From sequence record KY653126.1: a stretch of DNA of 42,706 bases; one strand, 5' to 3'. The position numbers were made by a program, and so were the translations under genes. This stretch comes from Staphylococcus virus IME1354_01. This document shows, one piece after another, positions 1-42,706 of this stretch (the first letter of the stretch is position 1; every line of letters begins with the position of its first letter). The notes under the pieces were generated by a model. It saw only the letters and a list, made by a program, of their open reading frames with translations. It was not told the DNA's origin and did no database searches.

Positions 1-14
1 CCCTCACTCTCCGT
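1..14. repeat. att core direct repeat, left copy (attL side): ccctcactctccgt
   Basis: An exact copy is present at 42693-42706. It lies immediately outside the 3' end of int. Confidence 0.7.
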
Positions 15-5685: not shown

Positions 5686-5922
5686 GTGTTTCGTCAAATG
5701 GCGAAGGAAACGGTAACTTATATCATTCGGCACAGAGAAATACCAATTTATATAACGAACAAACCTAGTGATGCTAATCCAGATACAAATTATTCCACTA
5801 ACATAAGTAGAGCTAGAGAATTCGATGGAATGGAAGAAGCAAAAATTAATATGGACCATCACATAGCTATAAAAAAGACGGTCATAGAAACAACGGAATA
5901 CGAGGAGGTACAAGATGACTAG
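5686..5922 (+). CDS. Hypothetical 78-aa protein
   Basis: The likely start is the ATG at 5698 after AGAGGTG. The stop overlaps the next start as ATGACTAG. Confidence 0.5.
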   Translation: MFRQMAKETVTYIIRHREIPIYITNKPSDANPDTNYSTNISRAREFDGMEEAKINMDHHIAIKKTVIETTEYEEVQDD

Positions 5923-6547
5923 CTTTATCGAAAAATTTAACGAACTTAATTCACGTAACGTAAACGAACACGTTGAACAAAAAAATGGTCTCAACTATTT
6001 ATCTTGGGCATATGTTCAACAAGAATTAACTAAATTAGATGAAAATTTTCAACACAGATTCATAGAATTTCCTTATACAGACAGTGAACGTGACGACATT
6101 TTCGTGCCTTATTTAAAGACAGATGAAGGTTATATGGTTTGTGTGGAAATCACATTATTTGGCGTTACCAAAAGAGAGTGGTTACCAGTATTAAATTACA
6201 AAAACCAAGCAATTCCTAAAGGATCAGCTACAACTTTCGACATAAACAAAAGTATGAAAAGAGCATTCGTAAAATGTGCAGCTCAATTTGGTCTAGGAAA
6301 CTATTTATATTTGGGCGAGGATGCGCCAGATGCTAGTGATAACGACAGAACTGAATTAGAAGATAAGATTAATCAGTTTGTTACTATCTCACAAGAAAAA
6401 GGCCGTGACGCAACGTTGGACAAAACAATGCGATGGTTAGGCATATCGGACATTAATAAAGTATCACAAAAAGAAATAGCAAACGCACACGCAAAACTAG
6501 ATGCAGGACTAAAACAATTAGATAAGGATGATGAAAATGATAAATAG
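5915..6547 (+). CDS. Putative single-strand annealing protein (Rad52-like Sak / DUF1071-type)
   Basis: The N-terminal region NGLNYLSWAYVQQEL...GYMVCVEITLFG resembles phage Sak/DUF1071 proteins, and the gene sits immediately upstream of ssb. Confidence 0.5.
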   Translation: MTSFIEKFNELNSRNVNEHVEQKNGLNYLSWAYVQQELTKLDENFQHRFIEFPYTDSERDDIFVPYLKTDEGYMVCVEITLFGVTKREWLPVLNYKNQAIPKGSATTFDINKSMKRAFVKCAAQFGLGNYLYLGEDAPDASDNDRTELEDKINQFVTISQEKGRDATLDKTMRWLGISDINKVSQKEIANAHAKLDAGLKQLDKDDENDK

Positions 6548-6971
6548 ATTTATTGGTGTAGGACGATTAACTAAGGACCCAAATTTTGTAGAAGGACAAA
6601 CTGCAATAGCAAATTTCACAATAGCTTGCAACCGTCCGTTTAAGAACAAAAACGGTGAACATGATGCAGACTTCATCAATGTTGTAACATTCCGCAAACA
6701 AGCTGAAAACGTCAATAACTATGTACACAAAGGCGATATGGTTGGGATTGACGGACGTATACAATCACGCAGTTATGAAAATAAAGAAGGTCAACGTGTA
6801 TTTGTGACCGAAGTAGTGGCGGACAATGTTCAGTTTTTAGAACCTAAAGGACAATCAAACAAACAATACCAACAACAACGTGGTCAAGCTAAACCACAAC
6901 AAGCACCAGATAAAGATAATCCATTTGCTAACGGAAGTGCAGATATCAATACGGATGACCTTCCGTTCTGA
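6528..6971 (+). CDS. ssb: Single-stranded DNA-binding protein
   Basis: It has an OB-fold SSB sequence (MINRFIGVGRLTKDP...) and the acidic C-terminal tail DDLPF. The likely start is the ATG at 6537. Confidence 0.9.
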   Translation: MMKMINRFIGVGRLTKDPNFVEGQTAIANFTIACNRPFKNKNGEHDADFINVVTFRKQAENVNNYVHKGDMVGIDGRIQSRSYENKEGQRVFVTEVVADNVQFLEPKGQSNKQYQQQRGQAKPQQAPDKDNPFANGSADINTDDLPF

Positions 6972-6984
6972 TTGGACTGATTGA

Positions 6985-7665
6985 ATGCCAATAATTAAAA
7001 ACTACATCCAGCAAGATGATGGCACAATAACTGCTGTCATCGAGGATGTAACGTTAGAAAACAAAGACTTCTTACTGTTAGATAACGGACTAGAAGTAGA
7101 GTGCGACGTAATCGTGAGTGATCCTTACAAGATAACCGATAAACAACGTCGAAAAGTGTTCGCAATGATAAGAGATATATTCAATCACTATGGACAACCA
7201 ATGGACTATTTAAGGTATATGTTCCAAAAACAACTGGAGTTCTTACACGGTTATGAACCTATTTCATTAAGTAACTGCAGTAGACGACAAGCGAGTGAAT
7301 TAATCGAGTTGATACTTGATTTTATATTCGTAAATAATATACCCATTCACAAAGTCACTAGCGAGCTTATGAGCAACGATAAGTATTTTATATATAAATC
7401 TACCATAAACAGAATATGTGTTGTCTGTGGGGCTAAGAATGCCGATTTAGCACATTATCAAGCAGTAGGTAGAGGACGAAACAGAAACAAGATAGATCAT
7501 TATGGAAACAAAGTGTTAGCGCTGTGCAGAAACCATCATACAGAACAGCATCAAATAGGAATGGATAGCTTTAACAAGAAATATCATCTTACAGACAGTT
7601 GGCTTGACGTGGACGAGAAGCTGAATAAGATGTTGAAAGGAGAGCAATCAAATGGGAATCATTAG
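6985..7665 (+). CDS. HNH/Zn-finger nuclease-like protein (DUF968-type)
   Basis: The motif CVVCGAKNADLAHYQAVGRG...LALCRNHHTEQHQIG has the Cys/His spacing of an HNH-like fold. Confidence 0.5.
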   Translation: MPIIKNYIQQDDGTITAVIEDVTLENKDFLLLDNGLEVECDVIVSDPYKITDKQRRKVFAMIRDIFNHYGQPMDYLRYMFQKQLEFLHGYEPISLSNCSRRQASELIELILDFIFVNNIPIHKVTSELMSNDKYFIYKSTINRICVVCGAKNADLAHYQAVGRGRNRNKIDHYGNKVLALCRNHHTEQHQIGMDSFNKKYHLTDSWLDVDEKLNKMLKGEQSNGNH

Positions 7666-8356
7666 GATTGATAAAACTGCAGGTAATTACTTTATAGCTA
7701 GTAAATACTATGTAGAAGATGAAAATATTTCGTGGAAAGCCAAAGGGATTATGAGTTATCTATTTTCCAAACCTGATGATTGGCAGATTTACCAAACGCA
7801 ATTAGAGAAAGTATCTAAAGATGGCAAGGCTAGTGTTCGGTCAACTATTAATGAATTGATTGATAATGGTTATATGACTAGACAAAGCCGACGTAAAAGT
7901 AATGGCGATTTCGATGGATATGATTACACGCTACATGAACACCCAGTAAATGATGGGGTTCGAAAAATGGAAGACGCGAAAATGGAAGACGCGAAAATGG
8001 TAATCGCGAAATCGGACACTACTAATAATAACTCAACTAATAATGATTTAACTAATAATGATATAAACACTAGCGCAACTAAAGTTACGCAAGAACAATT
8101 CGACCAATGGTGGAATTTATATGATAAGAAACTAGATAAGAAGAAAGCATTTAGTTTATTTAAATCAGCATTAAAAAAATATGAGTTTGAAACCATTATG
8201 AACGGGACTAAAAATTATCTAAAAACAATTACTGATAAACAATATCAAAAATATCCTAAAACATTCTTATCACAAGAAAGTTTCTTGAATGATTACGGAA
8301 ATGAAGTAAAAACATCTGAAGAAAGTTATTTAGATAAATTGATGGAGGAGGGATAA
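7652..8356 (+). CDS. Replication initiator / replisome organizer-like protein, contains an internal iteron array
   Basis: The N-terminal domain is winged-helix-like. Fifteen-bp tandem repeats and an AT-rich stretch lie inside the coding sequence. The gene precedes the DnaB-like helicase. Confidence 0.55.
   Translation: MGIIRIDKTAGNYFIASKYYVEDENISWKAKGIMSYLFSKPDDWQIYQTQLEKVSKDGKASVRSTINELIDNGYMTRQSRRKSNGDFDGYDYTLHEHPVNDGVRKMEDAKMEDAKMVIAKSDTTNNNSTNNDLTNNDINTSATKVTQEQFDQWWNLYDKKLDKKKAFSLFKSALKKYEFETIMNGTKNYLKTITDKQYQKYPKTFLSQESFLNDYGNEVKTSEESYLDKLMEEG
7961..8015 (+). repeat. Iteron-like 15-bp tandem repeats (GCGAAAATGGAAGAC x about 3.5), putative phage origin
   Basis: The array reads cgaaaaatggaagac gcgaaaatggaagac gcgaaaatggtaatc gcgaaatcgg. 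It is followed at 8018-8070 by AT-rich ACTAATAATGA repeats. Confidence 0.55.
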
Positions 8357-8725: not shown

Positions 8726-9953
8726 ACGCCATGAGATAGAAAGCACCATTGTTGCTAGTCTTTTACAAAAACCAGATTTAATCGAAAAACTACGTGTTAA
8801 ACCTAAAATGTTTACGCATGATGGTATGAAGTCCTTTATGGAGTATGTGTTTGATGTAGGTAAAGTGGACCACAACGAAATATATTTAAAGACTACTAAA
8901 GACAAATCATTTTTAGATATGAATACCATTTCGAATTTGTATAATTCAATATTTATCGGCTACGGATTCTTTGAAAGATACCAACAAGATTTACTCAATC
9001 TATATCAAATAGATCAGACGCAAAATGTATTACAAGAATTCAATTCGGAACCAAACATAAACAATTTCGATGAGATGCTTAACAAACTACAAAAAGTCAG
9101 CTTGATTAGTGCAAATGAAGAAAGTGGAACGAAGAAAATTGTAGATCACTTTGTTGAAGAATTATACAGCGAAGAACCTAAGAAACAAATTAATACAGGT
9201 TACAAATTGATGGATTACAAAATAGGAGGTTTAGAGCCTACACAGTTGATTGTGATTGCTGCAAGGCCTTCAGTCGGAAAGACAGGATTTGCGCTTAATA
9301 TGATGCTTAATATTGCCTCACAAGGATATAAAACATCGTTCTTTAGCTTAGAAACTACAGGTGTATCTGTATTAAAAAGAATGTTATCAGCAGAAACTGG
9401 AATAGAACTAACACGTATTAAAGAAATTAAAGATTTAGAGCCAGATGAACTAACACGTTTAACAAGTGCTGCAGATAAAATACTCAAACTTGATATAGAT
9501 ATACACGATAAAAGCAATATCACTACACACGATGTACGTAAACAAGCGATGAAAAACAAAGATACCCAACAAGTTATATTCATCGACTACCTACAACTTA
9601 TGGAAACAGACAACAAGTTAGATCGTCGTAATGGTATTGAAAAAATATCAAGAGACTTAAAGATTATCGCTAACGAAACAGGCGCAATTATCGTCTTACT
9701 TTCACAGTTAAGTCGTGGAGTTGAAAGTAGAAACGACAAACGTCCTATGTTATCTGATATGAAAGAAGCAGGCGGAATAGAAGCAGACGCTAGTTTAGCA
9801 ATGTTGTTATATCGAGATGACTATTATAACCGTGATGACGTTGATAACTCAGGAAAATCAATTGTTGAATGTAATATCGCAAAGAATAAAGACGGGGAAA
9901 CGGGCATTATCGAATTTGAATACTACAAGAAAACGCAAAGGTTTTTCACATGA
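8718..9953 (+). CDS. DnaB-like replicative DNA helicase
   Basis: The C-terminal RecA-like domain has Walker A (ARPSVGKTGFALNMM) and DnaB-type motifs (IDYLQLM, LSQLSRGVESR). Confidence 0.9.
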   Translation: MNERHEIESTIVASLLQKPDLIEKLRVKPKMFTHDGMKSFMEYVFDVGKVDHNEIYLKTTKDKSFLDMNTISNLYNSIFIGYGFFERYQQDLLNLYQIDQTQNVLQEFNSEPNINNFDEMLNKLQKVSLISANEESGTKKIVDHFVEELYSEEPKKQINTGYKLMDYKIGGLEPTQLIVIAARPSVGKTGFALNMMLNIASQGYKTSFFSLETTGVSVLKRMLSAETGIELTRIKEIKDLEPDELTRLTSAADKILKLDIDIHDKSNITTHDVRKQAMKNKDTQQVIFIDYLQLMETDNKLDRRNGIEKISRDLKIIANETGAIIVLLSQLSRGVESRNDKRPMLSDMKEAGGIEADASLAMLLYRDDYYNRDDVDNSGKSIVECNIAKNKDGETGIIEFEYYKKTQRFFT

Positions 9954-10156
9954 CTATAAAACAATTCCAACAATTACTCGGACACCTATACAGAGACACA
10001 TACAAAGACGACACGCTCATTCAAGCTAATTTACTTGAGTTAGGTTGGGCAACTGAAAGATTGCGTGTGAATGGTCGCATAACGCCGTTTGATATGTATG
10101 AAGAAAAGAAGGACATTATTTTTGAAGAAATGGAGTGGTCGGATAGATGGAAATAA
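9950..10156 (+). CDS. Hypothetical 68-aa protein
   Basis: The ORF is coupled to the helicase stop through an ATGA overlap. Confidence 0.5.
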   Translation: MTIKQFQQLLGHLYRDTYKDDTLIQANLLELGWATERLRVNGRITPFDMYEEKKDIIFEEMEWSDRWK

Positions 10157-10371
10157 TTGAAAAGTATTTTCTTTATAGACCAGATGGAACAGAAGAAATA
10201 GAAGTAGAGAAACTTGATAAAGATACGAATATAGTTAGAACGCTCACAGGCGCTCATTTTAGCGAAGAAAGTAAAAAGATGACTGATAATGAGGTAAAAC
10301 GTTTTAAAGGCGTGTACGGGCTTCTATATGAGAATGAGCTAGGGTTACAAACAACAATATTTGATATATAG
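10147..10371 (+). CDS. Hypothetical 74-aa protein
   Basis: Its 3' end (…FDI stop) lies inside the 20-bp junction repeat. Confidence 0.5.
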   Translation: MEIIEKYFLYRPDGTEEIEVEKLDKDTNIVRTLTGAHFSEESKKMTDNEVKRFKGVYGLLYENELGLQTTIFDI

Positions 10372-10377
10372 GAGTGA
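10358..10377 (+). repeat. 20-bp junction direct repeat tatttgatatataggagtga (copy 1)
   Basis: An exact copy is at 11151-11170. It spans the FDI-stop of the upstream gene and the RBS of the downstream gene. Confidence 0.8.
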
Positions 10378-10381
10378 ACCA

Positions 10382-11164
10382 ATGGAACTGAATAAAATTT
10401 ACAACGAAGATTGTTTGATAGGTATGGAAAAAATTAAGGACAAGTCGGTAGATATGATTTTATGCGATTTACCATATGGAATGACAGATTGTAAGTGGGA
10501 CTCGATACTACCTTTAGATAAGCTATGGAAGCAGTACGAAAGAGTGATAAAGGATAATGGCGCTATAGTTCTAACAGCAGCACAACCGTTCACAACTCAC
10601 CTCATTGCTTCAAACATGAAACTTTTCAAATACACTTGGTATTGGATTAAAAATAGACCCAGTGGTTGGCAACATGCAAAGAATAAACCAATGACCAAAG
10701 TTGAAGAAGTATGTGTTTTTAGTAAAGCACCAATAGGGCATTTTTCACGACTAGGGGATAGAAGAATGGAGTATTACCCACAAGGTATTAAACCATCTGG
10801 CAAGAAAACCATAAGTGCTGCAAAACGCGGGAACATTATGGGGGCGAGACCTAATCAGACAGGAAAAGAATATGAGTCATTCACAGGTTTTCCGCATAAC
10901 ATACTAGAAATACAAAACGTCATCGGCAAACAAACAGTACATCCTACTCAAAAACCTGTTGAGCTATTCGAATACCTAATCAAAACATACACAAATGAGG
11001 GCGATACAGTATTAGATAATTGCATAGGGAGTGGAACAACCGCAATAGCTGCAATTAACACTAATAGAAATTATATAGGCTTTGAGTTAGACAAAGAATA
11101 TTTCGAATTAGCGAAAGACCGAATAAAAAAACACAATAAGCAGATGGAATTATTTGATATATAG
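10382..11164 (+). CDS. Orphan DNA methyltransferase, N6-adenine/N4-cytosine beta-class (N6_N4_Mtase-type)
   Basis: Motif IV DLPYG precedes HPTQKP and motif I (VLDNCIGSGTTAIAA). I take the ATG at 10382 after GGAGTGA as the start. The track begins at a TTG at 10361. Confidence 0.85.
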   Translation: MELNKIYNEDCLIGMEKIKDKSVDMILCDLPYGMTDCKWDSILPLDKLWKQYERVIKDNGAIVLTAAQPFTTHLIASNMKLFKYTWYWIKNRPSGWQHAKNKPMTKVEEVCVFSKAPIGHFSRLGDRRMEYYPQGIKPSGKKTISAAKRGNIMGARPNQTGKEYESFTGFPHNILEIQNVIGKQTVHPTQKPVELFEYLIKTYTNEGDTVLDNCIGSGTTAIAAINTNRNYIGFELDKEYFELAKDRIKKHNKQMELFDI

Positions 11165-11170
11165 GAGTGA
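11151..11170 (+). repeat. 20-bp junction direct repeat tatttgatatataggagtga (copy 2)
   Basis: It is an exact match to 10358-10377 and bounds the 3' end of the methyltransferase cassette. Confidence 0.8.
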
Positions 11171-11174
11171 CGGA

Positions 11175-11576
11175 ATGAGCAAATACAATGCAAAAAAAAT
11201 TGAGTACAAAGGAATTGTATTCGATAGCACGGTAGAGTGTGAATATTACCAATATTTAGAAAGTAGATTGCATGTAGATGGTTATGACCATATTCAAGTA
11301 CAACCTAGATTTGAGTTAATACCAAAAGTGGGCAAGCAAAGAAAAACGGAATATGTGGGAGATTTCGCACTGTATTTTGAAACTAAACTTATCGAAGTTA
11401 TAGATGTTAAAGGTATGCCTACAGAAACAGCTAAATTGAAAGCAAAGTTATTCAGATATAAATACCCAGATGTAAAGCTAACGTGGATATGTAAAGCTCC
11501 TAAATACACAGGTAAGCAATGGATAACTTACGAAGATTTAATTAAAGCTAGACGAGAACGCAAGAAAGCGAAGTGA
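11175..11576 (+). CDS. Conserved phage protein (DUF1064-like)
   Basis: The segment YKGIVFDSTVECEYYQYLE...VGDFALY matches a common staphylococcal-phage early protein. The ATG at 11175 follows GGAGTGA. Confidence 0.5.
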   Translation: MSKYNAKKIEYKGIVFDSTVECEYYQYLESRLHVDGYDHIQVQPRFELIPKVGKQRKTEYVGDFALYFETKLIEVIDVKGMPTETAKLKAKLFRYKYPDVKLTWICKAPKYTGKQWITYEDLIKARRERKKAK

Positions 11577-11581
11577 TCTAA

Positions 11582-11770
11582 ATGAATGAAGAAACAGCAA
11601 CAATTCGATATAAAGTCTACGTTGAGAAGCGAGTGTATGTTAATCACGATGACGATGATAATACTGCCGCTGATAAGATACACAATCAGATGTGGACGAA
11701 TAAAGAAGATTACATGGACGCAAAACCATTAGAGTTTGACGACGTAAAAATTATAGATAGGGGTTATTGA
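11582..11770 (+). CDS. Hypothetical 62-aa protein
   Basis: This is a tightly packed ORF on the early strand. Confidence 0.45.
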   Translation: MNEETATIRYKVYVEKRVYVNHDDDDNTAADKIHNQMWTNKEDYMDAKPLEFDDVKIIDRGY

Positions 11771-11771
11771 G

Positions 11772-12125
11772 ATGGTTAAAACAATTAGAGTGCACGACGC
11801 AATATATGAAATCAAAGGCGAGAACTACGAGCTAGCAGAGAAGTTGGATATATCAGATGGTTTATTAAGAGGTCGACTGTTGAAAGGCTGGTCGTTAGCA
11901 GAAGCATGCCAGGTACCTAAAGGTATTGACCCTAAAGATTTAGTTTATATCAATTATGCCAAACAGTATGAAGCAGATAACACACAAGCGAAGATTAATT
12001 ACAGAGAAGAAAAGCATAAGGAAGAACGTCCTTGGTTATACGATGGAACACCACAAAACCATGACAGAGGTAAGTGGTGCCAGTATTTAATGAATACAAG
12101 TATTTTTCCTAAGGCGGTGCATTAG
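11772..12125 (+). CDS. Hypothetical 117-aa protein
   Basis: This is a tightly packed ORF on the early strand. Confidence 0.5.
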   Translation: MVKTIRVHDAIYEIKGENYELAEKLDISDGLLRGRLLKGWSLAEACQVPKGIDPKDLVYINYAKQYEADNTQAKINYREEKHKEERPWLYDGTPQNHDRGKWCQYLMNTSIFPKAVH

Positions 12126-13100
12126 ATGAAAATCAGTGATTTAAAAATAGGTAACTACGTTGTTGTGAATGACTTAGGTGCAGGTAAGTATAGCAGTGGT
12201 ATGCGTGTGATAGGTAGAGTGGTTGAGATTGACGATAAAGGAAACTATGCGATTATCGAATCGCTACCTAAACACAGATATGAAATCACAGACTTCAACG
12301 ACTTTGAGTTGTGGACGAAAGAGATGGAAGATAAGACTGAGAGTATGAGTAAAGTAAAAATAAAAGATTTGAATTTAGGTGACACAATCCGGATACCACA
12401 CGGAATAATGTATTTAGAAGGTAAAGTGGTTTCCATAAGTGATGTGTTTGCGACAGTGCACTTTCCTTCAGTAGGACATAAAGCTATAGGTGATGAGTCG
12501 GATTTTAAAAGAATTAGAAAAGCAAGAAAATCATTGGACCCTAATAAATGGTTAGAGAAAGCTATTGAGGAAAATAAGGAAAATTCAAAATCAGTTTTAG
12601 AAGCAGGTTTAGGGGTTAGTAAACCGACTACTGACCATAAACAATCCAACGACGTACAACAACGTAAGCGTAAGGAAGAAAACACGGCGTTATTTAAAAT
12701 TAAGGATTTAAAAGTCGGTTACAAAGTCAAAATGCTAGATGATGATATGACAGGTGAAATTTCTGAAATAGCCGATAATGGTAAGTATGCTGAAATAAAA
12801 ATAGATAATGGCGTGTATAGAGGTATCAACGATAATTGTGATTTCACAATAACAGAGTGGAATTCAGTGCCAGAGTATGCAGAGGACACAGTTAACAGTC
12901 CTTCACATTATAACTACGGTGATATAGAAGTGATAAATTTCATAGAGCAGGTAACTCAACATTACAACGCTAACGTAGCTTATCACATTGGGAATGCTAT
13001 TAAGTATCTTGCACGCAGTCCTCATAAGAACGGTAAAGAGGACGTAGCTAAAGCTAAATGGTATATCGAACGTGCGTTTGAGAATTGGGATGTGAAGTAG
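12126..13100 (+). CDS. 324-aa protein with three tandem N-terminal KIKDL-type repeats and a conserved C-terminal phage domain (DUF3310-like)
   Basis: The three repeat units begin MKISDLKIGNYVVV, KVKIKDLNLGDTIRI and LFKIKDLKVGYKVKM. The C-terminal region reads SPSHYNYGDIEVINFIEQ...NAIKYLARSPHKNGKEDVAKAKWYIERA. Confidence 0.55.
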   Translation: MKISDLKIGNYVVVNDLGAGKYSSGMRVIGRVVEIDDKGNYAIIESLPKHRYEITDFNDFELWTKEMEDKTESMSKVKIKDLNLGDTIRIPHGIMYLEGKVVSISDVFATVHFPSVGHKAIGDESDFKRIRKARKSLDPNKWLEKAIEENKENSKSVLEAGLGVSKPTTDHKQSNDVQQRKRKEENTALFKIKDLKVGYKVKMLDDDMTGEISEIADNGKYAEIKIDNGVYRGINDNCDFTITEWNSVPEYAEDTVNSPSHYNYGDIEVINFIEQVTQHYNANVAYHIGNAIKYLARSPHKNGKEDVAKAKWYIERAFENWDVK

Positions 13101-13529
13101 ATGGACGTACATTATAGTAGCAAATCTAATGAGTGGGCTACACCTCAGTATTTATTTGATGAATTAGATAGAGAATTTAGTTTTACATTGGATCCATGCG
13201 CTACAGATGGAAACGCTAAATGTGATAAATACTACACAATTAAAGATGATGGTTTAAAACAAGATTGGTCAAATGATGTAGTGTTTATGAACCCTCCGTA
13301 TGGACGAGGTATTAAACATTGGATTAAGAAAGCATATGAAGAACATATGAAAGGTGCAACGGTTGTTTGTTTAATTCCTTCAAGAACAGACACAACTTAT
13401 TGGCATGACTATATTTTCGGAAAAGCAAGTGACATTCGTTTTCTAAGAGGGCGTTTGAAGTTTGGTGATAGTAAAAACAGTGCGCCGTTTCCTAGTGCAA
13501 TTGTTGTATATGAAAGTGAGATACGTTAA
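13101..13529 (+). CDS. Orphan DNA N6-adenine methyltransferase, phage Dam family
   Basis: WATPQYLFDELDREFSFTLDPCA, the NPPYG motif and FLRGRLKFGD...APFPSAIVVYES match the phage Dam family along the whole length. Confidence 0.8.
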   Translation: MDVHYSSKSNEWATPQYLFDELDREFSFTLDPCATDGNAKCDKYYTIKDDGLKQDWSNDVVFMNPPYGRGIKHWIKKAYEEHMKGATVVCLIPSRTDTTYWHDYIFGKASDIRFLRGRLKFGDSKNSAPFPSAIVVYESEIR

Positions 13530-13735
13530 TGAAGCTATCTGACGCTATCAAAGTTAAATACAAACTCGATACTAAAGGCAGAAATACTGTCGAAATGGCA
13601 AAGCTACTAAGAGATTGTGGAGTTAAAGGATTCTTATACTCGATTAATCCACGTAGCATTGTCATGGCAGTGTTGCCAGAGGATAAAGCACATAACAGGA
13701 AAGTATTAAATGAATTGAAAGGGCTGGTGGAGTAG
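13529..13735 (+). CDS. Hypothetical 68-aa protein
   Basis: The ORF is coupled to the upstream gene through an ATGA overlap. Confidence 0.45.
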   Translation: MKLSDAIKVKYKLDTKGRNTVEMAKLLRDCGVKGFLYSINPRSIVMAVLPEDKAHNRKVLNELKGLVE

Positions 13736-14125
13736 ATGATTAAGTTTAGAGCGTGGGATAAAGAAGAAAAAGAATGGTTAAGTATTAGAACAATAGGATT
13801 TGATGATGATGGCTCACTTTGGTATTTACAAGCTTGGGATGATAATGAAAACGACATAGACCCACCATATTTAGAAGATGATTTAGGAGTGAAATGGGAG
13901 CTTCTCCAATCCACGGGGCTTAAAGATAAACATGGTGTGGAGATATACGATAAAGATATTGTAAGAGATTCCTATGGAGATATTCTCTTAATTGAGTGGT
14001 TAGACGGTAGCTTTGTACTAACTGACTTTTTCAGTGGTGGATATGACCATTGCAGTATAGATGATTCAGAAGCATATGAAATTGTTGGTAATCAATTTGA
14101 ACACCCACATTTACTAGAGGAGTGA
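13736..14125 (+). CDS. YopX-family protein
   Basis: The start MIKFRAWDKEEKEW and the segment GLKDKHGVEIYDKDIV are typical of YopX. Confidence 0.7.
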   Translation: MIKFRAWDKEEKEWLSIRTIGFDDDGSLWYLQAWDDNENDIDPPYLEDDLGVKWELLQSTGLKDKHGVEIYDKDIVRDSYGDILLIEWLDGSFVLTDFFSGGYDHCSIDDSEAYEIVGNQFEHPHLLEE

Positions 14126-14136
14126 TGGCGAGTGAG
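14117..14136 (+). repeat. 20-bp junction direct repeat gaggagtgatggcgagtgag (copy 1)
   Basis: An exact copy is at 14918-14937. In both copies the upstream gene ends with an EE codon pair and the stop, and the downstream gene starts at a GTG 15 nt into the repeat. Confidence 0.8.
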
Positions 14137-14440
14137 AATAGAATGTAACGGCGATAGAGTATCGATGTCTAAAAATGAATATAACCAAGTAATGAATGAA
14201 CTCAATCAGATTAAAAAACAACGCGACACATGCCTTGAAGATATTGAGAAGTTGCGAAATAAGTTAGAAGGTGCCGAAACATACATTGACGCAATTAAAA
14301 CTTATTATCCTATGTATAAAAGTTTACGTAAACGTTACACCACCCTAACCGACCACATACGTTTGAAAGCAGAAATGAATCCAGGGGTAAGTCGTTATAT
14401 AGATTTGGTTAATTACATTGATAGATTGGAGCGAAGATAA
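14132..14440 (+). CDS. Hypothetical 102-aa coiled-coil protein
   Basis: The gene has a GTG start inside the junction repeat. Confidence 0.5.
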   Translation: MRIECNGDRVSMSKNEYNQVMNELNQIKKQRDTCLEDIEKLRNKLEGAETYIDAIKTYYPMYKSLRKRYTTLTDHIRLKAEMNPGVSRYIDLVNYIDRLERR

Positions 14441-14583
14441 TGCCCAAATCAAAATACTACTCAACTAAACAAATCAGAGAAATCATAAATAGTTATCAAA
14501 TATATGAACCACATATTCATAAAGAGGTGTTAGAGAGATTGAAACAAGAGTTTGGATACAAGGAGGACAACAACAATGATTAA
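14440..14583 (+). CDS. Small 47-aa ORF (not in track)
   Basis: Its ATG overlaps the upstream TAA, and it ends just inside the next gene (MPKSKYYSTKQIREIINSYQIYEPHIHKEVLERLKQEFGYKEDNNND). Confidence 0.3.
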   Translation: MPKSKYYSTKQIREIINSYQIYEPHIHKEVLERLKQEFGYKEDNNND

Positions 14584-14926
14584 AGAACAATTATATACAT
14601 TCAAAGCAAACTGCTACAACGTTGTAGATGGGGACACAATAGACGTGATATTAGATTTCGGTTTCGATATTTCTGCAGATAGAAGATTACGTTTATTAGA
14701 TGTTGATACGCCTGAACGAGGACAAGAGAATTACACAGAGGCTACTGAGTTTGTGAAAGATAAAGTGTTTAATCACGATGTGCTGGTGCAGACACACAAA
14801 GATGACAATTTTGGTCGTTACTTAGCAAATGTTTATTACCTAGATGGCACAGAATATAGACTGCTTAATGATGAGATTAAAGAGAATGGACTATTAAAAC
14901 CAAATTCTAAATGGAATGAGGAGTGA
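14576..14926 (+). CDS. Staphylococcal-nuclease (SNase/thermonuclease)-like fold protein, short
   Basis: It contains VVDGDTIDV...RLRLLDVDTPER (compare the SNase DGDT...RLLLVDTPE). The ATG at 14576 follows AGGAGG. The track begins at a TTG at 14552. Confidence 0.55.
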   Translation: MIKEQLYTFKANCYNVVDGDTIDVILDFGFDISADRRLRLLDVDTPERGQENYTEATEFVKDKVFNHDVLVQTHKDDNFGRYLANVYYLDGTEYRLLNDEIKENGLLKPNSKWNEE

Positions 14927-14937
14927 TGGCGAGTGAG
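14918..14937 (+). repeat. 20-bp junction direct repeat gaggagtgatggcgagtgag (copy 2)
   Basis: It is an exact match to 14117-14136. Confidence 0.8.
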
Positions 14938-15208
14938 CGATTATTACGAAAGACAAAGTCAATATTGGTTTGATGAATGCGCGAAATTTATTAAAGAACT
15001 CAACCAATACAAACAAGCATATCAGCACTGTGTGGATGATTTAATCGTACTACGTGCGAATAATAAACGGTTGGAACGGGAGAACGCAGAACAACTCGAA
15101 TTACTGAAACAGTTTAGAAAGCTTATAGATTATAAATTAACACTGCATCAAGGCAGTTCGATGTATAGAGAGTATCGAAGTAAGTTAGATCAGTTGGGGG
15201 TTAAGTAG
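14933..15208 (+). CDS. Hypothetical 91-aa coiled-coil protein
   Basis: The gene has a GTG start inside the junction repeat. Confidence 0.5.
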   Translation: MSDYYERQSQYWFDECAKFIKELNQYKQAYQHCVDDLIVLRANNKRLERENAEQLELLKQFRKLIDYKLTLHQGSSMYREYRSKLDQLGVK

Positions 15209-15439
15209 ATGGCGTATGAGTATGAAAGTGATGTAATAAGCGAGTTAGAACAAATGGGCGCGGATTATCAAAGCAATGAATATTTCAATATGTCTATTGA
15301 AGTTGAAGAAGTCTATCGCAAAGCAAAGGCGTATGAAAAATTAGTTGAATTATATCCACAAAAAGATGAAATACCAAGCGATGAATTTTTTATGATGATG
15401 GGATATATCATTAAGGAACTCACAGACGATGAAAGATAG
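15209..15439 (+). CDS. Hypothetical acidic 76-aa protein
   Basis: The ORF starts with a TAGATG junction. Confidence 0.45.
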   Translation: MAYEYESDVISELEQMGADYQSNEYFNMSIEVEEVYRKAKAYEKLVELYPQKDEIPSDEFFMMMGYIIKELTDDER

Positions 15440-15490
15440 AGAAAAATGGCAGAAATTAAAAGATGAAATATATGTTTGGAGGACAAATAA

Positions 15491-16015
15491 ATGACAAACA
15501 CATTACAAATAAAACTACTAAGCGACAACGCAACAATGCCAGAACGTCATCATGATACAGATGCCGGTTATGACATATACGCAGCAGAAACAGTGATACT
15601 TGAACCACAACAGAAAGCATTAGTTGCTACTGATCTAGCAGTGAATATTCCTAAAGGCTATGTGGGATTACTAACAAGTAGAAGTGGTGTAAGTAGTAAG
15701 ACACATCTTGTAGTTGAGACAGGGAAGATTGATGCAGGATTTCAAGGTCATATGAGGATTAATGTTAAGAATGACTTTATACCAATTAAAAAAAGAAAGA
15801 AAACCGAGGCGTACTTTAATGTTGAAGGTAAAGGAGTTCTAGATTTAAAGAGTGATAAGAAATACAAACTTCGAACATACCAAATCAACAAAGGCGACCG
15901 ACTAGCACAGTTAGTTATCGTGCCTATATACACACCAGAGTTAGAGACAGTTAAGGAGTTTAGTAATGAATCAGCAAGAGGAGAAAAAGGGTGGGGTTCT
16001 AGTGGAACAAGATAA
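15491..16015 (+). CDS. dut: Trimeric dUTPase with phage-type extra motif insertion
   Basis: Canonical dUTPase motifs are DAGYDIYA, GLLTSRSGVSSKTHL, GKIDAGFQGHMRINVKN and RGEKGWGSSG. An extra segment of about 40 aa lies between motifs III/IV and V. Confidence 0.9.
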   Translation: MTNTLQIKLLSDNATMPERHHDTDAGYDIYAAETVILEPQQKALVATDLAVNIPKGYVGLLTSRSGVSSKTHLVVETGKIDAGFQGHMRINVKNDFIPIKKRKKTEAYFNVEGKGVLDLKSDKKYKLRTYQINKGDRLAQLVIVPIYTPELETVKEFSNESARGEKGWGSSGTR

Positions 16016-16062
16016 AGATATCGTTGAACGTGTACGAATAATATTAGGCAAGGAGTGAGGCA

Positions 16063-16215
16063 ATGCAATTCCTAGTACGCAAGACACACCACACAACAGG
16101 TGAAGTATTCTTTGATGTAACTAGAGCTAAGGATAATGAAGAATTCATTGTAGTGGAAGCAGAGAATAAGGAAGATGCAAAAGAGAAGGTTAAACATAAG
16201 GAGGACGACCAATGA
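16063..16215 (+). CDS. Small 50-aa ORF (not in track)
   Basis: It has RBS GGAGTGAGG, and its stop overlaps the next ATG (ATGA). Confidence 0.35.
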   Translation: MQFLVRKTHHTTGEVFFDVTRAKDNEEFIVVEAENKEDAKEKVKHKEDDQ

Positions 16216-16340
16216 AACAAATACTCAAACTATTATTAACACTTGCACTCTATGAACTAAGTAAAGAGATCACATACGAAATCATTTGTCGTATGCAAGC
16301 GAATGATATGGTGCCAAAAGATTATGAGGAGGAGAAGTAA
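16212..16340 (+). CDS. Small 42-aa ORF (not in track)
   Basis: It is chained by ATGA/TAATG overlaps between the neighbouring ORFs. Confidence 0.3.
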   Translation: MKQILKLLLTLALYELSKEITYEIICRMQANDMVPKDYEEEK

Positions 16341-16567
16341 TGAGTAATTTAATAAATCAAATATATGTAATTGAAACTAAAGATGGTCGTTTTTACGAGA
16401 AAGAAGTTGAAATGTATGCTGACGACGAAGTAATAAACACAGTGTTAAAAGTGGTTGCCAAATTATCCGAAGCAAAAAGATTTTCAGATTATAAAGAAGC
16501 AAATGAGATTGCGCTTGCTTATGGTTTCAATGTGTTAGCACTCAATACTTATTTAGAAGAGGTGTAG
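16340..16567 (+). CDS. Hypothetical 75-aa protein
   Basis: The ORF has RBS GGAGGAG. Confidence 0.5.
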   Translation: MSNLINQIYVIETKDGRFYEKEVEMYADDEVINTVLKVVAKLSEAKRFSDYKEANEIALAYGFNVLALNTYLEEV

Positions 16568-16571
16568 TTAT

Positions 16572-16796
16572 ATGTGGATTATTATATCAATCTTATCAGG
16601 ATGTATAACAATACTTACGCTTATCTACAATTCAATTAAGGATTCTAAGATAGATGCACTGGAATATGAAGTAGCTTATCTACTCGATATTATATTCAAT
16701 GATCATGGCGATGTTGTATTGAGGTTGAAAGATAATGAATTAACGGATGAAGAAGTTAGAGAGATAAAAGACGCATGGGATAAACGTATGAAATAA
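16572..16796 (+). CDS. Small membrane protein (74 aa, N-terminal TM)
   Basis: The N-terminus MWIIISILSGCITILTLIY is hydrophobic. Confidence 0.5.
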   Translation: MWIIISILSGCITILTLIYNSIKDSKIDALEYEVAYLLDIIFNDHGDVVLRLKDNELTDEEVREIKDAWDKRMK

Positions 16797-16809
16797 CTGG
16801 AGGTAGTAT

Positions 16810-17205
16810 ATGTACAGTGAATTAGAAGTAAGACAATTAATTACAGGCTATCATTGGCGTGTGAATCTGCTAGAACATAAGGTGTATGAGTATGACAGTA
16901 CATCTACTGGGCAGTATGGTATAGAAGCAGCAATGCCTAAAGGACAAGGACAGACTGGGGATAAGGTGTTGGTTAGAGTTATACGTAATGATAAGGATAA
17001 GAAACATTCACAGAAGTTAATAGATGAAATAGAGTTTGTTGATAAGCGTGAGCATTATATTACGAATGATAAAAATTATCACATACTGCAGTTGCTTAAG
17101 CAGGGCGAGACCATCAAGACTATAGAAAGGCTATTAGGTATAAGTAGAAGAAGTATATATAGTCGAATAGACAAGATAGTGGAAACATATATGAAACATC
17201 AATAA
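16810..17205 (+). CDS. Putative late-gene transcriptional activator (RinA/LtrC/ArpU superfamily-like, C-terminal HTH)
   Basis: The C-terminal HTH is TIKTIERLLGISRRSIYSRIDKI. It is the last early-strand gene before a 170-bp noncoding gap and the packaging module. Confidence 0.45.
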   Translation: MYSELEVRQLITGYHWRVNLLEHKVYEYDSTSTGQYGIEAAMPKGQGQTGDKVLVRVIRNDKDKKHSQKLIDEIEFVDKREHYITNDKNYHILQLLKQGETIKTIERLLGISRRSIYSRIDKIVETYMKHQ

Positions 17206-17221
17206 CCATGCACATATTGCA

Positions 17222-17255
17222 CACATTGCACAGTTTACACACTATTAGGTACATT
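17222..17255 (+). promoter_or_regulatory. Direct repeats ATTGCACA(CATTGCACA)…TTACACAC upstream of the packaging operon, candidate activator site and late promoter region
   Basis: The sequence reads cacatATTGCACACATTGCACAgtttacacac, and a TATATAAT box at 17268-17275 has no good -35 element. Confidence 0.35.
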
Positions 17256-17407
17256 ACTAAGGTAAGGTATATAATATGGATATACGCAAGTTGGATATAA
17301 CTTTAGAGGTGTTAGTCCAATGGTATGTAATACAAATACTATATTATGATTAATTTGCAGGCACATCACATTGAGTGGTGTGTCTTTCTTATATGGAGGT
17401 AAGCAAA

Positions 17408-18142
17408 GTGAAACTTGTTATTGTGTATGGTGCGCCTATGAGTGGTAAGACAACATACGTTAATGAACAATTAACTAATGAAGATATTGTGTATGACTAT
17501 GATGCTTTAGCAAAGACTATCACTAATAGTGAATACCAACAATACAATGACAATGCACACAATCTATTACTTACTCTAAGAGATAGCATGATTGATTATG
17601 CCAAGTGGAATGATAAAGGAACTATGTACATCATTACGACATTCTTATCTAAAGTAATACTTAATAGACTTAAGACATTATCTATAGAAGCGAAGTACAT
17701 CAAGATGGATGTAGATATAAATACTTGTCTTAAACGTTTGTACGAAACAGACAGACACGATGCACATGAGGTTGAAGAAGTCATACATGATTGGTATGCA
17801 AGACATGATAATAAACCAGCAAGTGATCGTGTTGTTGATAAGGAGACAATGCGTTTCTACAAATCTAAAGCATGGCGTGATACAAGGCTACAAGTATTAA
17901 AAAGAGATAACTATGAATGCCAACATTGCAAGGCACAAGGTAAAGTGACAACTATTGATAAGAGCAAACATAAATCATTAGATGTTGACCATATAAAAGA
18001 GTTGGATACACATCCAAATTTAGCATATGACATGGACAATTTGGTTACATTGTGTGTGTCTTGTCATAATCGCAAACACAATCGGAACTACAATCGATGG
18101 AATCGCAAGCCTAATAAATGGGATGGAGATGAAAAATGGTAA
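17408..18142 (+). CDS. HNH endonuclease fused to an N-terminal P-loop NTPase/kinase-like domain (packaging-associated HNH)
   Basis: The N-terminus has Walker A VIVYGAPMSGKTTYV, and the C-terminus has the HNH motif YECQHCK...LDVDHIKEL...NLVTLCVSCHNRKHN. It sits immediately upstream of the cos region and terS. The GTG at 17408 after GGAGGT is the likely start. Confidence 0.75.
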   Translation: MKLVIVYGAPMSGKTTYVNEQLTNEDIVYDYDALAKTITNSEYQQYNDNAHNLLLTLRDSMIDYAKWNDKGTMYIITTFLSKVILNRLKTLSIEAKYIKMDVDINTCLKRLYETDRHDAHEVEEVIHDWYARHDNKPASDRVVDKETMRFYKSKAWRDTRLQVLKRDNYECQHCKAQGKVTTIDKSKHKSLDVDHIKELDTHPNLAYDMDNLVTLCVSCHNRKHNRNYNRWNRKPNKWDGDEKW

Positions 18143-42692: not shown

Positions 42693-42706
42693 CCCTCACT
42701 CTCCGT
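42693..42706. repeat. att core direct repeat, right copy (attR side): ccctcactctccgt
   Basis: This is an exact 14-bp match to positions 1-14, and the preceding g at 42692 may extend the core. Confidence 0.7.

Follow-up and report, generated by a model that had tools for sequence, protein, structure and literature searches.

The two exact 20-nt repeats at 14117-14136 and 14918-14937 of Staphylococcus virus IME1354_01 (sequence record KY653126.1; the whole stretch of 42,706 nucleotides analyzed here is referred to as the window) are copies of an adaptor, the junction element J (core AGGAGTGATGGCGAGTG), and no private duplication of this phage. About 60 contigs of Staphylococcus phages and prophages carry J, with 1–4 copies in each; among them are temperate siphoviruses of ~40 kb and Twort-like myoviruses of ~140 kb. 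The stop codon of the preceding gene and the start codon of the next occupy fixed positions within it, homology between loci is lost sharply at its edges, and it bounds blocks of DNA that are 100% identical between phages. We consider it probable that J is a portable adaptor, providing a stop codon, a ribosome-binding site and a GTG start, that doubles as homology for the exchange of gene cassettes.

Two copies of J in the window

A preliminary description of this DNA, made from its letters alone, had reported an exact 20-mer at the two positions, with each upstream gene ending in two glutamates and a stop inside the repeat, and each downstream gene starting at a GTG 15 nt into it. An exact search of the whole window found GAGGAGTGATGGCGAGTGAG on the plus strand at both places, no third copy was detected on either strand at up to three mismatches, and none of 100 dinucleotide-preserving shuffles contained a match. 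The coordinates of the open reading frames (ORFs) agree with the rest of that account: the YopX-family gene ends in ...LLEE with its TGA at 14123-14125, the SNase-like gene ends in ...WNEE with its TGA at 14924-14926, and each GTG start (14132 and 14933) is found 15 nt into its copy. Identity between the copies ends sharply: the two bases preceding the 20-mer are T-A in one and A-T in the other, and the base that follows is A or C, respectively. The 801-bp interval holds, as had also been described, a 102-amino acid (aa) ORF, an overlapping 47-aa ORF and an SNase-like gene, the last confirmed by Pfam. The elements and genes of this segment are as follows.

13736-14125, plus strand: YopX-family gene (Pfam YopX, E=5e-23); its last two codons and stop come from J
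14115-14136, plus strand: J copy 1, with the YopX TGA, the extended Shine-Dalgarno sequence AGAGGAGTGAT, a 9-nt spacer and GTG 14132
14132-14440, plus strand: 102-aa coiled-coil gene (D1 paralogue 1), GTG start in J copy 1
14440-14583, plus strand: 47-aa ORF, its start overlapping the 102-aa stop as TAATG, ending ...YKEDNNND
14558-14926, plus strand: SNase-like nuclease cassette, with its own ribosome site AAGGAGGA and ATG 14576
14576-14926, plus strand: SNase-like gene (ATG 14576; Pfam SNase, E=2e-9), stop in J copy 2
14918-14937, plus strand: J copy 2, with the SNase TGA 14924-14926 and GTG 14933
14933-15208, plus strand: 91-aa coiled-coil gene (D1 paralogue 2), GTG start in J copy 2

The upstream TGA and the downstream GTG of each copy share one frame and are 9 nt apart (14123-14134 and 14924-14935), and an out-of-frame ATG overlaps the stop (TGATG), opening ORFs of 7 and 15 codons. 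These sites might conceivably give a readthrough fusion or hold a small decoy ORF. At one related locus (L136), a one-base deletion in the spacer brings the ATG of TGATG into frame with the next gene.

J is widespread in Staphylococcus phages and prophages

Scanning IMG/VR with the 16-mer GGAGTGATGGCGAGTG returned 66 loci which, together with phage PSU4 and the window, give 85 occurrences (L-numbers below identify related loci, those of named phages included). The 78 in AT-rich DNA resembling that of Staphylococcus phages are considered here; the other 7 are chance matches in GC-rich contigs. Several loci carry two to four copies with a few hundred bases between them. PSU4, a 144-kb Twort-like myovirus (Herelleviridae), has two copies of AAGGAGTGATGGCGAGTG.

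The 17-mer was also found in prophage contexts in the representatives of 8 Staphylococcus species, with up to 3 copies in tandem: S. arlettae (five copies), S. edaphicus (three), S. gallinarum (two), S. nepalensis, S. pseudoxylosus, S. caeli, S. kloosii and Staphylococcus sp. S9. These species all belong to the S. saprophyticus group. The bacterial sample comprised one genome per species, and absence from other species is thus weak evidence. About 30 further 17-mer matches in unrelated taxa are mostly without a long downstream ORF and look like chance. J is probably a feature of the early accessory region in phages infecting the S. saprophyticus species group. An assembly artefact was rejected as its source, since J recurs in complete isolate genomes such as those of PSU4 and S. 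arlettae NCTC 12413. A full-text literature search with the 16-mer matched no paper, with most subscription literature lying outside its coverage.

A variant of the element is seen in phage SA2 (VB-SauS-SA2, an 89-kb Sextaecvirus; L002), where two copies of GAGGAGTGATGGATAGTGA, at 2142-2161 and 2520-2539, bracket a YopX-like gene. The presence of the same AT variant in both copies suggests homogenization within the lineage. This variant (AGGAGTGATGGATAGTG) occurs in just 8 IMG/VR loci and was rejected as a second widespread allele.

J is conserved at the nucleotide level

The consensus of J is T-A-R-A-GGAGTGATGGCGAGTG-A, about 17–21 nt in length. The base before the 16-mer is A in all 67 unique contexts, the three earlier bases are mostly T-A-R, and the base after it is mostly A. 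On both sides, pairwise identity falls to a background of ~0.3 within 3–4 nt of J. The element is always co-oriented with the genes (78/78 AT-rich occurrences) and always presents a GTG start; this GTG (positions 14–16) opens an ORF of at least 40 aa in 68 of the 71 complete cases. The stop of the upstream ORF falls within J in 65 of 69 cases. For 44 of these 65 stops (11 upstream families) it is the TGA inside GGAGTGA, and for the other 21 (9 upstream families) it is a TAA or TAG directly before GGAG. T-A-R-A is retained whether it is read as Leu-Lys, Ile-Lys or a stop. Because J keeps its sequence regardless of frame, with stops in two frames and T-A-R-A constant in every reading, its conservation is at the nucleotide level. 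Near-variants are scarce: in 613 kb of related loci, 76 exact 17-mers were counted against 9 with 1–3 mismatches.

Since most of these occurrences were collected with the motif itself, loci anchored on the YopX gene or on the 91-aa gene serve as samples that were not ascertained on J. Eight YopX-anchored loci retain the YopX C-terminus, at 31–93% aa identity, and are followed by seven different genes. J is exact in six of them, where YopX identity is 40–67%; the locus with the closest YopX (L136, 93% aa) has the J variant with the one-base spacer deletion, and at the locus with the most distant YopX (L144, 31%) the start region is another one. The 91-aa gene as anchor gave 15 loci: J is exact in nine, carries one mismatch in one and is reduced to TGATGGCGAGTG in one, and the remaining four have another start region, TAAGGAGTGCTAATTATG, which has only the Shine-Dalgarno part in common with J. 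J is thus far better conserved than the surrounding coding DNA. Such conservation requires purifying selection, frequent homogenizing exchange, or both, which these data do not separate; the identity of the spacer, too, may reflect either selection or repeated exchange.

The 3' end of Firmicute 16S rRNA is, by textbook, ...GAUCACCUCCUUUCU. Judged against this end, AAAGGAG and UGAU of J are predicted to be able to pair with the anti-Shine-Dalgarno sequence, and GGCGAGUG is predicted not to be. GGCGAGTG is invariant in the motif-ascertained set and in 6 of the 8 YopX-anchored loci, the assignment of bases to 16S pairing being textbook-based. Other kinds of signal were not evident. An Rfam scan of 9500-17500 gave no family at E<=1, a promoter scan gave one weak minus-strand match that touches J (9/12, 14932-14904), promoter-like matches across 12000-16500 were fewer than in shuffles, and no terminator-like site was found at J. 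The sequence of J, read directly, is without internal dyad symmetry.

J joins many gene families

Across 76 occurrences, J is flanked by 23 upstream and 10 downstream families in 34 combinations. YopX is the commonest gene upstream (21/76), followed by a 32-aa ...YLLKE peptide (8) and, in 3 cases, the SNase-like gene; a Lar-like zinc-finger gene and two methyltransferase-like kinds, assigned by sequence motifs with no profile search, also occur there. Downstream, a single cluster, D1, accounts for 54 of the 76 genes and includes both window genes, of 102 and 91 aa. The two copies of J in the window are the start signals of two D1 paralogues. A Lar-like restriction-alleviation zinc-finger gene (PHROG 599) follows J in 9 occurrences, and several ORFans do so as well.

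D1 is a hypervariable mosaic family of coiled-coil proteins, in which N-terminal segments, central coils and at least three C-terminal modules are interchangeable. Similarity between the 102-aa and 91-aa proteins is distant (BLASTP E=0.001). The 102-aa gene has an N-terminus of the MRIE... type and a C-terminus of the ...YTTLTDHIRLKAEMNPGVSRYIDLVNYIDRLE type; the 91-aa gene has a body and C-terminus common to many phages (82–91% aa identity) and a unique N-terminal segment; and the D1 member of PSU4 combines 102-aa-like ends with a 91-aa-like middle. In Pfam and NCBIfam, a search for a function returned nothing beyond coiled-coil noise below threshold, and the families matched in PHROG are of unknown function. 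J marks a hypervariable family that merits functional study. D1 regions lie at 14132-14440 and 14933-15208 of the window and at 38-920 of L076, and the family can form a tandem array of three genes, each with J, as in S. arlettae NCTC 12413.

Homology breaks at J, and identical blocks are bounded by J

Recombination within a shared element is expected to leave loci that are similar on one side of it and unrelated on the other. This was assessed by comparing 120-nt flanks for all pairs of occurrences, taking as informative those with one flank at least 85% and the other at most 45% identical. There were 86 such pairs, 29 similar upstream and dissimilar downstream and 57 the reverse. In 75 of the 86, identity extends no more than 4 nt past the motif into the unrelated side. 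Both copies in the window show this behavior. The YopX flank of copy 1 is 94% identical to that of L055, where a different gene follows, and the 5' part of the downstream gene is 79–84% identical in at least 8 loci with unrelated upstream genes. The SNase flank of copy 2 is 95% identical to L011, L120 and L064 (95–96% for L011 and L064), in which three different genes follow, and downstream similarity is lost 0–2 nt past the motif.

Complete blocks bounded by J were also observed. A block of 434–436 bp in the lytic phage PSU4 (L003, 2871-3306) is 100.0% identical in three contigs of ~40 kb, at the following positions.

L025, 8580-9015: 100.0% identity to PSU4
L038, 6445-6880: 100.0% identity to PSU4
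L054, 11639-12072: 100.0% identity to PSU4

The block consists of J, the Lar-like gene, a small ORF and J, with no similarity outside it; it opens 2–4 nt ahead of the first J core and closes with the final base of the second J. L025 also has an extra 290-bp cassette, made up of J plus a gene, that separates two genes which are neighbors in PSU4; both of its flanks are 100% identical to PSU4. Presence and absence of material between junction copies, by which the preliminary description had proposed to check its interpretation, is therefore seen in relatives. All three contigs have an early-gene set like that of the prophage studied here. Such identity points to very recent gene flow between a lytic Herelleviridae myovirus and presumably temperate siphoviruses.

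The proposal that this region is built from modules swapped at short conserved junctions is thus supported by the 75 of 86 breakpoints and the identical J-bounded blocks, and the repeat does occur with other neighbors, in about 60 contigs. In L136, which has the closest YopX relative, YopX is followed by the J variant, other content and then a gene body of the 91-aa type. What did not hold is the three-gene unit as the module, together with its exact empty site.

The three-gene block is not a fixed unit

L011 and L064 have the SNase gene without the 102-aa and 47-aa genes, and genes of the 102-aa type without SNase exist. In these two loci, homology to the SNase cassette runs from 14558 to 14935-14937, and the cassette stands behind other genes. 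In addition to its Pfam match, the SNase-like gene matches a PHROG endonuclease (E=2.5e-42) and a thermonuclease in the PDB. Its ribosome-site region, AACAAGGAGGACAMAAACAATGA, forms the left boundary of the cassette and is a second conserved junction (window 14558-14583; L064 1038-1069; L011 14369-14400), in which three unrelated ORFs end with ...KEDxNND: the 47-aa ORF, a 62-aa ORF of L064 and a (truncated) MazG-like remnant of L011. The C-terminal part of a dUTPase model (NF049964) weakly matches the 47-aa ORF (E=4.5e-4), and the ORF may be the remnant of a longer gene and not a functional gene.

Proposed mechanism and alternative explanations

We infer a role for J in translation, by which it would end an incoming ORF in two of the three frames, through the TGA in GGAGTGA or a TAA/TAG just upstream, and would give the next ORF a strong extended Shine-Dalgarno sequence and, after a fixed 9-nt spacer, a GTG start, thereby coupling the translation of adjacent cassettes. 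Since J is identical before non-homologous genes, it would be usable as homology for exchange. It would form an island of identity in otherwise unrelated DNA, and crossovers within it between co-infecting or resident phages could replace, insert or delete entire cassettes while the ORFs stay undamaged. The enzymes would probably be phage single-strand annealing proteins, for which the window has a candidate; the SSB-like assignment below comes from a reading of the translation only, with no profile search.

5915-6547, plus strand: Sak-like (Rad52-type) single-stranded DNA annealing protein (PHROG 659, E=2e-68)
6528-6971: SSB-like gene, directly after the Sak-like gene

Annealing proteins of this kind reportedly recombine sequences of short or diverged homology and give rise to phage mosaics (PMC3945230, PMC2327257, PMC5499656).

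Several observations weigh against this interpretation. No genome was found that lacks exactly 14132-14926 between the YopX gene and the 91-aa gene with a single J, the arrangement that the preliminary description had suggested looking for. A search with the N-terminus of the 91-aa protein for a YopX-J-91aa empty site was also negative: IMG/VR relatives match only from residue 10–18, and the N-terminal segment itself is found in a single, near-identical contig from a metagenome, in which SNase, J and the 91-aa gene are arranged in the same way. In three pairs of loci (L010/L112, L025/L116 and L027/L113), a single D1 gene occupies this place, with the first ~26 residues 102-aa-like and the rest 91-aa-like; read from its sequence, this hybrid gene points to a crossover at an internal ELNQ-coding homology and not from J to J. 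The dominance of D1 (54/76) means that the recurrence of J could partly be that of the conserved 5' end of one family, and the size of the D1 cluster may itself be inflated by coiled-coil composition. Most other breakpoints in the region, in a locus set ascertained on J, are gene boundaries without a common motif; therefore illegitimate recombination with selection for intact genes also operates here. Finally, J is shorter than the pairing minima quoted for Red-beta (23–27 bp) and RecA (31–34 bp) (PMC3945230), and exchange at J would therefore be rare per infection.

One alternative is that J is only a strongly selected translation-initiation region, a start-associated sequence perhaps read by a host or phage factor, which has no part in recombination, with illegitimate joins surviving just at gene boundaries. 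Exact retention of J beside YopX orthologues that have diverged to 40–67% aa identity argues that the sequence as such is under selection, its conservation may reach past the bases predicted to pair with 16S rRNA, like that of the start-associated sequences of mycobacteriophages, and the motif-free breakpoints elsewhere in the region likewise fall at gene boundaries. We nevertheless regard this explanation as unlikely. Illegitimate joins would not rebuild an exact J of 17–21 nt at each new junction, the 100%-identical blocks end precisely in J on both sides, and the 75 pairs lose homology within 4 nt of the motif. J-delimited blocks together with such breakpoints are the expected signature of crossover within a common sequence. 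A more elaborate version of the adaptor hypothesis would combine the two functions: a protein or RNA of phage or host origin would act in trans, reading the invariant TGATGGCGAGTG and controlling hypervariable, possibly counter-defense, genes, and J would also be the crossover point at which single-gene cassettes pass between temperate siphoviruses and lytic Twort-like myoviruses. This is speculative and we think it rather unlikely; if true, it would describe an integron-like economy of gene cassettes without an integrase.

The remaining explanations concern the origin of the pair of copies and the possibility of a dedicated enzyme. The 102-aa and 91-aa proteins are distant paralogues of one family, and tandem arrays such as the three genes of S. 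arlettae NCTC 12413 are known, so the copies might have arisen when a coiled-coil gene was duplicated in tandem in this phage together with its start region, with later divergence of the duplicates and insertion of the 47-aa and SNase genes between them. This is very improbable, since the two genes and their upstream flanks have no nucleotide similarity except in the 20-mer and a short ELNQ-coding patch, and a duplication old enough to lose similarity would not spare 20 of 20 bases. Closer relatives are moreover found elsewhere, for the first half in PSU4, L010 and L046 and for the second half in L011 and L120. We give still less credence to J as the target of a site-specific recombinase or homing-type nuclease, possibly the SNase-like protein, which would mobilize the neighboring cassettes, even though cassette arrays do have a common short site and a nuclease gene abuts J in the window, L011 and L064. 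The SNase gene is upstream of just 3 of the 76 copies, J is without inverted-repeat symmetry and always keeps the distance to a start codon that a ribosome site would have, no recombinase gene is found with it, and the sole integrase is that of the prophage (66-1172, at the genome end). A transposon target-site duplication was also considered and rejected, as there is no transposase in 14132-14917 and the same sequence is present at ~76 other junctions.

Genome context and other repeats

The window is a complete temperate Staphylococcus siphovirus prophage, with the integrase at 66-1172 on the minus strand. Its similarity to named phages is patchy, the top match being O1-69, which covers 34% of the late region with 90% identity. 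Both ends of the window (1-14 and 42693-42706) carry a direct repeat of 14 nt, CCCTCACTCTCCGT, which adjoins the integrase and is probably either the att core flanking the prophage or an assembly/circularization overlap. The genes further out on either side of the J-bearing segment are as follows.

12126-13100: DUF3310 gene
13101-13529: Dam-type methyltransferase
13529-13735: 68-aa gene
15209-15439: 76-aa gene
15491-16015: dUTPase

Only four exact direct repeats of at least 20 nt occur in the 42.7-kb window: the J pair, a pair at 10358/11151 around a methyltransferase gene, and two intragenic repeats (7964/7979 and 29007/29271).

10361-11164, plus strand: N4/N6 methyltransferase cassette, between repeats 10358-10384 and 11151-11177 (20–27-nt repeat, TATTTGATATATAGGAGTGA...)

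The methyltransferase cassette had been described as having the same architecture as the J-bounded segment. This is correct insofar as repeats bracket it and empty sites with one repeat copy exist, in O1-69 (L001, 1272-1298) and L111 (3473-3492), with flanks 88–91% identical; the repeat sequence itself is unrelated to J. The 20-mer of this pair occurs in 2 IMG/VR loci only and was therefore rejected as a widespread motif. The repeat at 7964-7993, within a 234-aa gene (7652-8356), is a 15-nt tandem duplication (AAAATGGAAGACGCG twice) that yields KMEDAKMEDAKM. The other belongs to a 44-nt imperfect direct repeat of the late region (29003-29046/29267-29310; 84% identical, 20-nt exact core, 264-nt spacing), which probably lies inside a structural gene as an internal repeat.

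Comparison with known systems

The closest counterparts in layout are the start-associated sequences (SAS) of Cluster K mycobacteriophages (Pope et al. 2011, PMC3203893). Both SAS and J are short and asymmetric, lie in a single orientation a few nucleotides before the starts of varied gene families, are limited to the non-structural part of the genome and to one phage group, and contain a Shine-Dalgarno core. Upstream stops sometimes fall inside either element. SAS are conserved beyond the bases that pair with 16S rRNA, and J, judged against the textbook 16S end, may be as well. The sequence of SAS (GGGATAGGAGCCC) is however unrelated to that of J, and there are 11–19 copies of SAS per genome, mostly before an ATG at a variable distance of 3–7 nt, in contrast to 1–4 copies of J with a fixed spacer and always a GTG. 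SAS have not been reported as recombination breakpoints, and the inverted repeats of extended SAS are not present with J. The relation of J to SAS is thus one of analogy and not of homology.

The PeSL cassettes of T4-type phages (Arbiol et al. 2010, PMC2839356; PMC4122927) resemble J in exchange. In both systems, repeated short regulatory motifs flank small non-essential ORFs in hyperplastic regions, and motif-bounded insertions, deletions and replacements between related phages point to recombination between copies. PeSL motifs, which comprise a sigma-70 early promoter and a stem-loop terminator, are transcriptional and intergenic, whereas J would be translational, overlaps the ORFs on both sides and has neither signal. 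Mini-circles have been demonstrated for PeSL cassettes.

A long-running question is whether phage mosaicism arises by homologous exchange at conserved boundaries or by illegitimate recombination followed by selection. The boundary (linker) sequences of lambdoid phages embody the same concept as J, homologous recombination at short conserved module boundaries, and the main objection to that model is that such sequences usually cannot be identified (PMC3029335). Compared with them, J is explicit, exactly conserved, present across phage families and a complete unit of stop, ribosome site and start. It provides an exact boundary element of 17–21 nt in dozens of independent contexts, with bounded cassettes that are 100% identical, and it indicates exchange between lytic and temperate phages with common hosts, offering a tractable natural system for the study of short-homology recombination.

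Integrons rely on the IntI integrase, on attC sites that are imperfect palindromes, on attI and on a common promoter. Their arrays of promoterless single-gene cassettes, with a common short site and highly variable content, are similar to those at J. In contrast, J has no integron integrase, attC-like palindrome, attI or common promoter, and it is located at the 5' start of a gene, where attC is at the 3' end. An attC site was accordingly rejected as the identity of J, the sole tyrosine recombinase being the prophage integrase and J being without dyad symmetry.

In synthetic bicistronic designs, a ribosome site is embedded in the end of an upstream ORF whose stop lies near the next start, and initiation is thereby insulated from its context. 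J has the same embedded layout; the designs are engineered devices, and J is a natural element that might provide such insulation. As a compact natural adaptor of stop, ribosome site and start, J could serve in the engineering of Staphylococcus phages. By sequence and composition J belongs to none of its three nearest analogues, SAS, PeSL cassettes and the lambdoid boundary sequences, and it is a translational-junction variant of the same principle.

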